A stretch of DNA of 64,000 nt from Escherichia coli (GCF_030384885.1 NZ_CP128613.1); one strand, 5' to 3'; positions 34,956-40,900 are shown, counted from the first letter of the stretch. A program made the numbers.

Positions 34956-37900
34956 TTATCCACTGGCGAATGACCAGCGCCACCACGCGCGGATCGTTAT
35001 CAGACATTTCACGGATACGCTGGCTCATGACCTCTGCCCCCAGACGTTGGTTCGCGCGTCGTTGTTGGAGTTGTTCATCTTTGCTCAGGCGGACTTCCAC
35101 CGCATCTTCCACTTCCTCGCGGGCCTGCGCCTGTTGCTGCACAGCTTTCATCGCCTCAGCGCGACGAGTTAGCTGTGGACGTACCGCTTTACGCCACAGT
35201 AGCCACGCCACCAGCAGTACCAGCAACCAGCGTCCGGCGCTCAGCAACTGATCGATAAATACCTGTTGTTGCCAGAACGGCAGTTCTCCACCGCTTTCGT
35301 CGCTGCTATTGAACGGCGAGTTAACGACATTGAGCGAGTCACCGCGTTTTTCAGAAAAGCCCATCGCCTCGCGGGTCAGATCTTCAATTTGCTTCATCTG
35401 TTCGTTGCTGAGAGGCAACGGTTTGCCATCTGGCAAGGTTTTGTAATTCACCACTACCGCGACTGACAGACGTTGCACATCGCCCACGTTCATTTTGGTA
35501 TGACGAATGGTGCGATCGACCTCGTAGTTACTGGTTTCATTACGTTGTGTGCTACGCGGCCCATTATTGCTGGTAGTGCTTGCCTGCTGCTGGCGATTAT
35601 TTTGATTTGCCGGAGGCGTGCTGATCGGCGCGTTATTTGCGGGTGCTGGTTGATTCGACAACGCACCCGGTACGCCGCCTGGATAACCGGAACCGCTTTG
35701 CTCGCTCTCATTAAGCTGGCGTGAGCGGAGCGCCGCCTGAGATTTATCACCGTTAGGGCGATACTGCTCTTCGGTTTGCTCCTTACTGGCGAAGTCCAGT
35801 TGCGCCGTAACCTGGGCGTGAATATTGCCGTTGCCGACAATAGGCGACAGGATCGCTTCAATACGCCGCTGAATTCGGCCTTCGACATCACTGGCATATT
35901 TCAACTGAGCATCATTAAGATCGCGCCCGCTGGTGTTGGATTGGGTTAACAGATGTCCGCCCTGATCCACCAACGTCACGTTCCCCGGAGGCAGACCAGC
36001 CACCGCGCTGGAAACCAGATGCACAATGGCGCTAATTTGCCCTTCATCGAGTGCGCGGCCGGGTAACAGATTTACCGTCACCGATGCAGAAGGGGATTTT
36101 TGCTCACGGACAAATAAAGAGGGTTTTGGCATTGCCAGATGGACACGCGCTCCTTTTACCGGGCCGATAGTTTCGATGGTACGAGAAAGCTCGCCTTCCA
36201 GCGCCCGCTGATAATTCACCTGCTCGCTGAACTGACTGATACCAAACTTTTCCTGATCGAGCAGTTCGAAACCGACCGCGCCGCCTTTGGGCAAACCTTG
36301 TTGCGCCAGGCGCAGACGCAGTTCGTGAACTTTATCTGCCGGAACTTCAATCGCGCCGCTGGCTTCGCTAAAGCGGTAAGGAATATTCATTTGCGTCAGT
36401 TGGCTGACGATTGCGCCACCATCCTGATCGGACAGATTGCTGAATAATGTGCGGTAGTCGGGGGCTTTCGCCCACAGGATCAGTGCGACCATGACCGCCA
36501 CTGCCGCGGAACCGGCAACAATCAATGGAATTTTCGGATTCGCACGCAGGCGATTAAGCCACTCAAGAGATTTTGTCTGGGCTGCAGTCGCATTCATCGC
36601 GCACCTCGTGGCTGATTATGGACGGCGTTATTGGCAAAGTGGAACAAGACTCACTCCCGGGTCAGCAAACTCGAAAAATTGACGCTCCCATTATTTGTGC
36701 TTTCGTTTTTTTCTATCCGCCAATAAACCCGTTTTTTTGTTGCTATTTAGCGCCTTTGTCTTATTGACTTACTGGTAGGCTTTGCTACCAGAAATTATCC
36801 GGGAGATGAAAATGTCAGCGATACAGGGGATTGAAGGGGTTATCAGCCAGTTACAGGCTACGGCGATGAGTGCGCGTGCGCAGGAATCACTACCGCAACC
36901 GACCATTAGTTTTGCTGGGCAGCTGCATGCCGCGCTCGATCGCATAAGCGATACACAAACCGCCGCCCGCACGCAGGCAGAAAAATTCACCCTCGGCGAA
37001 CCCGGCGTGGCGTTAAACGATGTGATGACCGATATGCAAAAAGCCTCAGTTTCTATGCAAATGGGGATTCAGGTGCGTAATAAGCTGGTGGCGGCGTATC
37101 AGGAAGTGATGAGCATGCAGGTGTAGGTTTTGTAACCTGTTGACTATGCTTGTTTAATTATATCCGATCCCACAGCGTGGGGCATGGATGGGGCAAACTC
37201 ACTCAATTTCTGGTTTAAAATGGATACCTGATCCTGGTTGTTTTCTGCCATCCACGATCCGTAAACGCGATAAAATGTTTTGTCTTCGCTTTGCTCATAG
37301 GAAGAGTGAACTCTTTCGTTAGCCTGGGGTTCCTTCTGATCATTATTGTTCCTGCCTTTATCTCTTGCCACGCCAGAGCCCCCTGGATACACACACACCA
37401 GGATGAAAACGGTGAGTTGTGTTCAAACTGTAGTACAATTCTCTCCAGTATGAACAGGAAAGAATATGCTATGAACCCTTATATTTATCTTGGTGGCGCA
37501 ATACTTGCAGAGGTCATTGGTACAACCTTAATGAAGTTTTCAGAGGGGTTTACACGGTTATGGCCCTCTGTTGGCACAATTATTTGCTATTGTGCATCAT
37601 TCTGGTTATTAGCTCAGACGCTGGCTTATATACCTACAGGGATTGCTTATGCTATCTGGTCAGGAGTCGGTATCGTTCTGATTAGTTTGCTTTCCTGGGG
37701 ATTTTTTGGCCAACGACTGGACCTGCCAGCCATCATAGGCATGATGTTGATTTGTGCCGGTGTGTTAGTCATTAACTTGTTGTCACGAAGTGCACCGCAT
37801 TAAAAAATAATTATCCTTGAGACAACAGGAATGTAATTTGTGCATATTATGGCTAATGTTGAGGGCAACTTTATAATTATGATTGCATTTGCACGATCAT

Positions 37901-40900
37901 TGCGCCTTTATGCATAATGAGAGCAAGGCACATCAAATAAAATAACGATAGGTCACAACAAAGAGGTTTTTATGAAAAAGCTTATCGTTTCAAGTGTATT
38001 GGCATTCATAACATTTTCTGCGCAGGCCGCAGCATTTCAGGTCACTAGTAATGAAATAAAAACAGGAGAGCAACTTACAACGTCTCATGTATTTTCTGGA
38101 TTTGGGTGTGAGGGGGGTAATACATCGCCCTCATTAACCTGGTCTGGTGCTCCAGAAGGCACCAAAAGCTTTGCCGTAACTGTGTATGATCCAGATGCGC
38201 CTACAGGCAGTGGATGGTGGCACTGGACGGTTGCTAATATTCCAGCAACGGTAACATATTTGCCCGCTGATGCAGGAAGACGTGATGGTACAAAACTTCC
38301 GACTGGTGCTGTCCAAGGCCGAAATGATTTTGGCTATGCAGGATTTGGTGGAGCATGTCCTCCCAAAGGAGATAAACCCCATCATTACCAGTTTAAAGTA
38401 TGGGCTCTAAAAACTGATAAGATTCCTGTAGATTCTAATTCCAGCGGAGCGTTAGTTGGTTATATGCTTAATGCCAATAAAATTGCAACCGCTGAGATAA
38501 CACCCGTTTATGAGGTAAAGTAGGATAAGAGTATGCTGGCAAAAGATAGGACTAACCTAAAGATTGAAGAAATACGGATGCATAAACATCATGAGATTCA
38601 CAGGGTTAAGCCTCTTATGCCAGCTTTATGTCGTATCCGTCAGGGAAAAAAAGTTATCAATTGGGAGACGCATAGTCTAACTGTTGATAATAATCAGATA
38701 ATATTATTTCCCTGTGGATATGAATTTTATATTGCGAATTACCCAGAAGCAGGTCTTTATCTTGCAGAAATGCTTTATTATCCCATTGATCTAATTGAAA
38801 AGTTCCAAAATCTTTATGCGATAACCGATCAAATTCGTAACACGACAGGTTTCTGCTTACCTCAGAATCCTGAGTTAATATATTGTTGGGAGCAACTAAA
38901 AACATCTATTTCCCGAGACTTCTCAACGCAAATTCAGGAACACTTAGCAATGGGCGTTCTACTTTCATTAGGAGCACATCATGTTAATTGTTTACTTTTA
39001 TCAGATAGTAAACAATCATTAATAAGTCGTTGTTATAACCTAATGCTATCCGAACCTGGAACAAAATGGACAGCAAACAAGGTAGCGAGATATCTCTACA
39101 TTTCTGTTTCCACATTGCATCGCCGTCTGGCAAGCGAGGGAGTAAGTTTTCAAAGTATATTGGACGACGTGAGGTTAAATAATGCGTTGTCTGCTATACA
39201 AACGACAGTAAAACCCATCAGCGAGATTGCCAGGGAAAATGGTTACAAGTGTCCTTCTCGTTTTACTGAAAGGTTCCATAATCGTTTTAAGATAACACCA
39301 AGAGAGCTAAGAAAAGCGTCCAGAGAGTAAAAGTATTTTATGAAGGAGCAACAGCATCGATTTTTATTTTGGAAAATAAATACGGCATACTCAACCTATT
39401 GGAGCCTGAACAATCCGGTGACTTCTGCGCTAATCGGGGACGTTTATAAGCACATATAATTGATACTATCTTCCTCCATCACAATTTCAGAAATGCACGT
39501 GTGATTTTTTTGCATCCGGCGTTTGGACTATGTGGAGTTCAAGAGTGGGAAAGTTACAAGAGGTTGAGGGGATAATTAAAGGGATGCTTATGACATTAGA
39601 TATCCGGATAGGTACGGATATCGTTGTTATTAAATCTAGTTTATACGTTAAGATGCAGCTACAGCAGAAATTACCACTGTTAATTTTTTCATCGTGAGCC
39701 CTTTTATTTGTACTATTATTTAAAAATGATGTCACTGCACTACAAATACTCATCTAATCAATGAGATTATTTCAAGATGTAAGTTTTAGTTTCTCATTTA
39801 AATTGTGAAGCAGATCCCTCCTTTTATCTGAACTGTTTCTATTGTACACAATGCATGACTATTTTGTGAACGAATATAAATTTGGTAGTCAAATTATATT
39901 AAAGGTTGTTATTTATGATTGACTCATAATTTATTTTTTTAATTTAAATAACCTAATAATAACCATGGAGATTATTTGCATGATATTTGTTTAGACTTGT
40001 TAATGTAATTGAGGTGATTTTATTTAATACGCAATATAGCGCCGCTTGATATTAGTTCTATTTTTTTTTGCGTAAGATAGATGAGACAAACTGAGACGCA
40101 TAATGGTTTGCAAGGCTCTAATACTTTGATGTTGAGGATGTGATGGGGCATGTACGTGCATAGTACAATGATGTCCATGCCGGTGTAGATAATCTCCAGG
40201 CTTATCCGGTGCGCCGTAAAACCCCGTCCTTCAGGGCGGGGATATAAGGCGCGGTTTTCCACCTGACCAGGTGTTTGCTGTTGTTCAATGTATTGGCGGA
40301 TGACGGACATTGGCGCACCTCCGCAGCTACTGGCAAAATTGCCAGGACTCCACAAAACGCCTTTGTAGTAATACCTGACTGTAATATCTGGTCGATCTCG
40401 TCGCAGTAACCTACCCGATACGCCTTTGAGGCTGTTTACCAGACTGGATATCGCCAGTTTGGGAGGATAGTTAATTAACAAATGGACGTGATCTGGTTCG
40501 CCATCCATTTCAACCAGTTCAGCTTCAAAATCAGCACATACATTTGAAAAGTAAGTGCGTAGTTTTTCTGTCGCGTCATGGTCAAAAATCTGGCGTCGGT
40601 ATTTGGTGACAAAGACCAGGTGAACATGCATCAGGAAAACACAATGCCTTCCACGCCGGATATCGGTTTCTTTTTTCACAGACCAAAGTATCATTTGACC
40701 TGTGAAACGATTACAGGCATTTAAATTCCAGTTAAGACCCGGTGGTCAACAGGAGTGTGAAATGAGGCGCTTCGCAGGCGCATGTCGTTTCGTTTTCAAT
40801 CGTGCTCTGGCGCTTCAGAATGAGAATCATAAGGCCGGTAAGAAATACATCCCTTACGGGAAAATGGCTTCCTGGCTGGTTGAGTGGAAAAATGCCACTG

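Follow-up and report, generated by a model that had tools for sequence, protein, structure and literature searches.

The emrE-ybcL-ybcM island beside fliE in Escherichia coli is very probably an eroded remnant of a DLP12-like lambdoid prophage

We analysed a 64,000-nucleotide stretch of the Escherichia coli sequence NZ_CP128613.1 (assembly GCF_030384885.1), here called the window, in which emrE, ybcL and ybcM lie directly after the flagellar gene fliE and are followed by an IS200/IS605 element and then yedK. The 3062-bp segment that holds the three genes (37127-40188) is very probably what deletions have left of a lambdoid, DLP12-like prophage once integrated at the fliE stop codon. Genes were called from a list of open reading frames (ORFs) and from the RefSeq annotation of E. 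coli 2013C-4282 (NZ_CP027579.1), which is 100% identical to the window. The ORFs, the annotation, Pfam searches and a comparison with K-12 all bore out the original prediction, made from the sequence alone, that EmrE-like, YbcL-like and YbcM-like genes stand beside fliE. Over 37,000-40,250 the GC content is down to 0.30-0.45, against about 0.55 in the fli genes. The genes are already correctly named in RefSeq, and the locus is a common, well-annotated polymorphism with nothing conceptually new about it.

The limits of the island were defined by comparison with a phage attachment site. A tblastn search against phages identified the 434-aa integrase of the lambda-like phage IdasGreatGrand (PP925829) as the relative of the integrase debris next to fliE. 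Window positions 37274-37107 match the 3' end of this int gene and 37 nt past its stop at 163 of 168 nt (97%), with 20 nt of the match lying within fliE. At this end, attL (37106-37126) reads GTGATGAGCATGCAGGTGTAG, that is, a host arm plus a 13-nt core, CATGCAGGTGTAG, whose last letters are the fliE stop; after the core comes the phage P' arm (GTTTTGTAACCTGTTGAC...). Junction alignment showed that the IdasGreatGrand attP consists of ATGATGTCCATGCAGGTGTAG joined to GTTTTGTAACC, and that attL consists of GTGATGAGCATGCAGGTGTAG joined to the same GTTTTGTAACC, the arm starting GTTTTG as in attP. At the other end, attR (40168-40188) reads ATGATGTCCATGCCGGTGTAG, comprises the end of the phage P arm plus the core, and is identical to attP at 20 of 21 positions. 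It is followed by the original fliE-downstream DNA, ATAATCTCCAGGCTTATC (starting ATAATC), which runs into the yedK stop 18 nt off. The core thus occurs as the last 13 nt of fliE (37114-37126) and again at 40176-40188 with one mismatch, and the arms match the phage attP on the sides expected from attP × attB recombination within it. At up to three mismatches, only attL and attR match the 21-mer in the 64-kb window, with no match in 100 shuffles and none expected. An exact k-mer search (at least 10 nt) between the island ends had found no direct repeat, since a point mutation in attR hid it until the comparison with attP; a perfect 21-mer is present at attR in other E. coli (metagenomic contigs).

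The roughly 250 nt from fliE to the beginning of DLP12 homology consist of integrase debris. A C-terminal fragment on the minus strand (37144-37290; blast to IdasGreatGrand) covers residues ~387-434, including the YRVYGSWM motif, and its ORF ends in YRVYGSWMAENNQDQVSILNQKLSEFAPSMPHAVGSDIIKQA followed by the stop codon. This fragment is the intG remnant of the K-12 "cryptic prophage PR-G", and PGAP calls the same stretch in other strains "integrase, missing N-terminus". A second, internal fragment, also on the minus strand (37269-37378), covers residues ~239-277 (ALAWQEI..KAGTIMIRRN..TKEFTLP; tblastn E 9e-10) and shows 75% nucleotide identity to the phage int at IdasGreatGrand locus 11540-11655. 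A deletion of ~343 bp joins the internal to the C-terminal fragment.

Beyond the integrase debris, the island follows DLP12, which in K-12 lies at argU with the order intD ... renD-emrE-ylcJ-ybcK-ybcL-ybcM-ylcH-ybcN-ninE-ybcO-rusA-ylcG-quuD-nmpC-essD .... Colinearity was assessed by blastn against the K-12 DLP12 locus, with gene stubs checked by tblastn, and four colinear blocks were obtained, reaching beyond the three genes. The first block (37395-37812; 92.3% to DLP12 locus 4240-4655) contains the last 8 nt of ren and emrE; homology begins with this ren tail and the native emrE upstream region (37395-37470, plus strand). The second block (37830-39537; 89.6% to DLP12 locus 6752-8459) contains ybcL, ybcM and most of ylcH, and ends with the ylcH' stub (39452-39537, plus strand), in which tblastn detected YlcH residues 3-20 at 67% identity. 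At the junction between these two blocks (37813-37829), 17 nt stand in place of the ~2.1 kb of ylcJ-ybcK in DLP12, so the trio indeed lacks the DLP12 recombinase gene ybcK, as had been proposed. The third block (39547-39645, plus strand; 82% to DLP12 locus 10242-10342) is the 3' end of quuD, the last 30 codons of the Q antiterminator homologue (tblastn, QuuD residues 98-127, 63%, E 2e-8); compared with DLP12, ybcN-ninE-ybcO-rusA-ylcG and most of Q are deleted. The fourth block (39652-40030; 80.6% to DLP12 locus 12786-13163) corresponds to the region upstream of nmpC. It comprises the first 14 codons of an nmpC/OmpC-like phage porin (39652-39692, minus strand), recognised by tblastn and by comparison with strain CFT073, and the porin upstream region (39693-40030), which is homologous to the DLP12 nmpC-essD intergenic region. 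A 1222-bp deletion between 39651 and 39652 took the rest of the porin, which is intact in CFT073; its breakpoints show no visible repeat. The last segment before attR (40031-40167), also common to CFT073, is presumed to be a diverged P arm.

The resulting order, int' - ren tail - emrE - ybcLM - ylcH' - Q' - porin', is colinear with both DLP12 and phage PhiR70_1. The genes of the island stand in the same order as in DLP12 and are oriented alike with respect to int; non-coding DNA on the flanks and the ylcH, quuD and nmpC-upstream segments are shared as well. In contrast, DLP12 lies at the argU tRNA gene with an unrelated integrase, has ylcJ-ybcK and keeps nin, Q, lysis and partial tail genes, whereas the fliE remnant is cut to 3.06 kb. 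Neither the ORF list nor the DLP12 blastn search revealed any immunity, replication, lysis or virion gene within 37127-40188; the island is therefore a remnant and not an inducible prophage.

The original prediction described the trio as mobile cargo that can land at different hotspots. The cargo does lie at a prophage site, and the trio does occur at three sites beside three different integrases, namely argU (DLP12), fliE, and sapC-sapB in E. albertii. Together with its compactness and AT-richness, this distribution is what a discrete module moving by itself between prophage hotspots would produce. Such a module is nevertheless very improbable, and the trio is not self-mobile, because no transposon or cassette flanks it, because DLP12 homology passes beyond it into ylcH', Q' and the porin region, and because the att repeats enclose the whole 3.06-kb island and not the trio. 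No transposase, recombinase, terminal, inverted or direct repeat, or target duplication frames the three genes, and ybcK is absent; each site has its own adjacent integrase; and the nearby IS200/IS605 element lies outside attR and is missing from CFT073. Moreover, 70 non-Escherichia loci have ybcL-ybcM but no emrE, which makes the trio a composite. What moved was an entire lambdoid phage, of which deletion left the trio.

Other strains carry further states of the same site. The B2/uropathogenic E. coli (UPEC) strains CFT073, Nissle 1917 and ABU 83972 also carry this island between fliE and yedK, at 98% identity, with an identical EmrE, the same att and int' remnants and a YbcL that has the UPEC-type residue. 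Unlike the window, CFT073 has an intact nmpC-like porin between Q' and the porin upstream region, no insertion sequence (IS) at yedK, and Thr at YbcL residue 99. In K-12, where prophage-remnant pseudogenes had been placed beside fliE, intG ("cryptic prophage PR-G") and yedN are indeed annotated. The PR-G locus has the same attL and the same int C-terminal fragment adjoining fliE, with homology extending to 37273, but yedN' and yedL stand in place of emrE-ybcL-ybcM and the attR core is replaced.

Several observations weigh against an eroded prophage as the complete account of the site. The segment at 40031-40167 matches nothing identified, and the P arm is only loosely like that of IdasGreatGrand. 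No remnant of lysis or structural genes was found in the island, and the porin region and attR are the sole grounds for deducing the right half of the prophage. Similarity to the modern phage differs sharply between the two int fragments (97% vs 75%), so that several integration or recombination events, and not one prophage, may have made the remnant a mosaic. The K-12-type allele (int', yedN', yedL) departs from the island allele precisely where the core meets the B' arm, and the prophage model leaves its origin unexplained; this boundary hints at integrase-mediated replacement and not random deletion. Finally, no unoccupied attB was found, and the ancestral empty site, GTGATGAGCATGCAGGTGTAGATAATC, is a reconstruction. 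When a synthetic query joining the fliE end to the yedK end was searched against E. coli genomes, the best matches listed still held a 376-bp remnant, so that rare empty sites are possible. A metagenome scan for the core plus B' returned only attR of occupied alleles, with a pattern that is unable to separate attR from an empty attB. As side observations, the attL-proximal int piece may have been renewed by a later phage, given the same 97% vs 75% difference, and an alignment of the K-12 locus (2491-2520) with CFT073 places the divergence exactly where the att core meets the original fliE-downstream DNA.

The distribution of the island was assessed in 5426 complete E. coli genomes. A contiguous fliE-emrE junction is present in 2618 of them, including CFT073 and Nissle 1917, so the trio is not universal between fliE and yedK. 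The arrangement of the window, with the porin deletion and the IS at yedK, accounts for ~1039 of the 2618 genomes, and the rest keep the porin like CFT073. In 1011 genomes, fliE and yedK are separated by no more than ~750 bp, which among the matches listed reflects the 376-bp remnant derived from the K-12 type; the remaining genomes are K-12-like at this interval. Overall, emrE occurs in 3692 genomes at 4183 places. Compared with the copy in the window, these genes fall into two groups of identity (at least 98.5%, or 92-93%): the fliE type, at 95% or more, is present in 2632 genomes, and 1060 genomes have the DLP12 type only, at 90-95%.

Nucleotide alignment gave 91-94% identity between the three genes and their DLP12 copies, confirming them as DLP12-type homologues. 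Because the DLP12 and fliE loci coexist in some genomes, and because shared flanking phage DNA could support recombination, one copy might have arisen from the other recently, in either direction, by homologous recombination or gene conversion within E. coli. We regard this as hardly credible. The synonymous divergence (dS) between fliE-type and DLP12-type copies is 0.23-0.34 and exceeds the ~0.14 of the flanking core genes fliE and yedK; the bimodal emrE identities show no intermediates in the sampled ranking; and the arrangement differs, with no ybcK and other deletions. The high dS, together with low ratios of nonsynonymous to synonymous divergence (dN/dS; 0.02 for emrE, 0.07 for ybcL and 0.13 for ybcM), indicates an old split with continued selection on all three genes. 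Separately, the dS of ~0.14 to K-12 for fliE (36812-37126) and yedK (41953-42621) itself seems high for core genes of E. coli, perhaps as a result of long-standing divergence between alleles around a polymorphic site.

The claim that the site is a prophage-integration hotspot was substantiated by intact prophages with the full 434-aa integrase between fliE and yedK in strain UTAK-1 and a few others. At least 80% of this integrase is present in eight complete E. coli genomes and is annotated directly beside fliE in six of the eight. At fliE, UTAK-1 holds a full lambdoid prophage with int, xis, recombination genes, N, cI, cro, cII, replication genes, nin, Q, lysis genes and terminase; the fliE site is in use by phages today. 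This apparently intact UTAK-1 element (NZ_CP157165.1; locus 1-21305), with its full-length int at the fliE stop, carries neither emrE nor ybcLM, and has tRNA-Thr and tRNA-Asn genes between Q and holin.

The cargo is likewise found in phages. Three complete lambda-like phages, PhiR70_1, PhiR34_1 and PhiR68_2, have the ybcL-ybcM-...-Q-porin region, and PhiR70_1 (PV340577) is annotated as ren-emrE-(orf)-ybcK-(orf)-ybcL-ybcM-ybcN-ninE-ybcO-rusA-ylcG-Q-porin-S-R-Rz. PhiR68.2, another phage of the PhiR panel, serves as an infective phage in a 2025 preprint (10.1101/2025.11.03.685801). IdasGreatGrand provides the matching integrase C-terminus and attP, and PhiR70_1 the cargo genes within a complete lambda-type genome. 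In the phage collection, none joins this integrase to this cargo and none has the fliE-type variant, the best match being 87.6% and of DLP12 type.

Alternatively, the trio could be ancestral chromosomal DNA 3' of fliE that a phage captured by aberrant excision and that then seeded the DLP12-type phages. Pairs resembling ybcL-ybcM are chromosomal in many genera, and capture of the specialised-transduction type occurs beside att sites. This origin is nonetheless most improbable: the trio lies within the att-bounded island between int' and Q', at the position of lambda ren/nin morons; none of the sampled non-Escherichia ybcLM loci is within 10 kb of fliE or yedK; and in intact phages emrE follows ren, far from att.

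Among 80 species-level loci across genera, a ybcM-like gene lies directly 3' of ybcL in 73, with emrE nearby only in three loci, all of them in Escherichia. The occurrence of ybcL-ybcM without emrE outside Escherichia indicates that the trio is emrE plus an older ybcLM operon, and that lambdoid phages of Escherichia joined the two in their ren/nin region. Strain NBRC 107761 of E. albertii has the trio beside the third, unrelated integrase, also without ybcK. Since this copy and the one at fliE have the same junction lacking ybcK, ylcJ-ybcK is most simply explained as an insertion in the DLP12 lineage, a conclusion drawn from these sequences with moderate confidence. The E. albertii trio belongs to a ~7-kb island (NZ_BBMY01000017.1, locus 7964-14936) between sapC and sapB that splits the sapABCDF operon and contains the integrase, emrE, ybcL, ybcM, an OYE-family oxidoreductase, a hydrolase and a LysR regulator.

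Taken as a prophage remnant, the island would have the following history. The genes fliE and yedK would originally have been convergent and ~15 bp apart. A lambdoid phage would have integrated by its own tyrosine integrase into the 13-bp core formed by the last codons and stop of fliE, leaving fliE intact, with int beside fliE (attL) and the phage P arm beside yedK (attR). Later deletions would have taken away xis and the genes for recombination, immunity, replication, lysis and structure, together with most of int, nin and Q, while host-beneficial accessory ("moron") genes survived. In the sub-lineage of this strain, the phage porin would also have been lost and an IS200/IS605 element would have entered the yedK stop codon. 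The anatomy of the island, its att sites and the population counts are direct observations; the order of the deletions is inferred.

The three surviving genes are under purifying selection, as indicated by their dN/dS ratios, and are probably functional given this selection and their near-identity to characterised K-12 and UPEC proteins. The product of emrE (37471-37803, plus strand) is an SMR proton-coupled multidrug/quaternary-cation efflux transporter of 110 aa, identified by Pfam (PF00893, 2e-35, 121.5 bits vs a cut-off of 23.7) and by K-12 and PDB matches (3B5D, 6e-69). It shares 108 of 110 residues with K-12 EmrE (I100V, T108A) at 92.8% nucleotide identity to the DLP12 copy, does not differ from CFT073 EmrE, and keeps the essential membrane-embedded Glu14 (...GGAILAEVIG...). 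EmrE would most likely export quaternary cationic compounds by proton antiport.

The product of ybcL (37972-38523, plus strand) is a periplasmic PEBP/RKIP-family protein (PF01161, PEBP; PBP domain; 2e-42, 144.9 bits) that shares 176 of 183 residues with its K-12 DLP12 counterpart (7 differences; 94.0% nucleotide identity) and matches PDB 1FUX over residues 20-183 (3e-110). Residue 99 (codon 38266-38268) is Ala here, as against Val in K-12 and Thr in CFT073. Lau et al. in 2012 reportedly found that V78T, in mature numbering, decides whether YbcL suppresses neutrophil migration. Mature residue 78 fits full-length residue 99, which would then be the functional determinant. When released from the periplasm, the YbcL of UPEC suppresses the transepithelial migration of neutrophils; a single residue decides this activity, and most UPEC encode the suppressing variant, one residue apart from the K-12 type (PMC4810123). 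The window encodes Ala at residue 99 and not the UPEC-type Thr.

Nine nucleotides downstream of ybcL, ybcM (38533-39330, plus strand) encodes an AraC-family regulator with a C-terminal double helix-turn-helix (HTH), placed in an operon with ybcL. Pfam detected the AraC HTH domain (PF12833, 1.5e-16, 60.9 bits) at residues 185-261, and 242 of 265 residues are shared with the K-12 DLP12 copy (23 differences; 91.1% nucleotide identity). In K-12, YbcM was bound upstream of ybcLM in ChIP-exo, and a ybcM mutant showed eight-fold worse H2O2 survival (PMC8464067). The two genes would form an operon of a periplasmic PEBP-family protein and its AraC-type autoregulator, which has been linked to oxidative-stress survival and, in UPEC, to suppressed neutrophil migration.

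Survival of the trio under strong purifying selection in three independently decayed prophages (argU, fliE and sapB/C) raises the idea that the genes are a co-selected functional unit and not mere neighbours, for example with EmrE exporting a compound related to the YbcL/YbcM stress response. In addition, emrE starts 344 nt 3' of fliE and in the same orientation, no terminator-like signal intervenes, and emrE could be read through from the FlhDC-dependent fliE promoter. We consider this proposal unlikely; if true, read-through from fliE would tie efflux to the flagellar regulon in roughly one half of E. coli. Promoter and terminator scans yielded nothing beyond shuffled expectation, and Rfam detected no riboswitch or regulatory RNA around emrE or ybcL, its sole match being a weak HgcC hit within the IS.

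The genes around the island are those of the flagellar cluster and the yed region, taken from the ORF list and annotation. Outside the island, fliE occupies 36812-37126 on the plus strand, with fliF-fliI upstream of it on the minus strand; on the other side, yedK (41950-42621, minus strand) is followed by yedF and yedE. Just beyond attR, the IS200/IS605-family element (40207-41954) carries divergent tnpA and tnpB genes, with tnpA truncated (minus strand) and insQ/tnpB intact (plus strand, 402 aa), and has subterminal hairpins CCCCGTCCTTCAGGGCGGGG and CCACGTCCTTCAGGGCGTGG. It lies in the yedK stop codon, where the insertion, common to ~1039 complete genomes, adds one residue to YedK (...PVC and stop vs ...PV and stop). 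The HgcC match covers 41847-41966 on the plus strand (21.9 bits vs a gathering score of 50, E 0.078), that is, the tnpB 3' end and the IS right end, where the TnpB guide (omega/re) RNA would be expected.

A 5.2-kb contig assigned to a "Lachnospiraceae bacterium" metagenome-assembled genome (SFGN01000137.1) has the order fliE'-int'-emrE-ybcL-ybcM-porin-yedK at 97-100% protein identity to E. coli, and is almost certainly E. coli contamination in the bin. In the open-access literature, no paper was found linking emrE or ybcL to the fliE site.

Although emrE is described as a DLP12 gene, the fliE-linked copy (~2630 genomes) is more than twice as common as the DLP12 type alone (~1060), and it is the copy of the UPEC strains CFT073, Nissle 1917 and ABU 83972. 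The comparison also identifies the stop codon of fliE as an attB of lambdoid phages, for which a living phage has the matching integrase. The island would represent a clean, bounded case of prophage domestication, in which only the host-beneficial morons survive.

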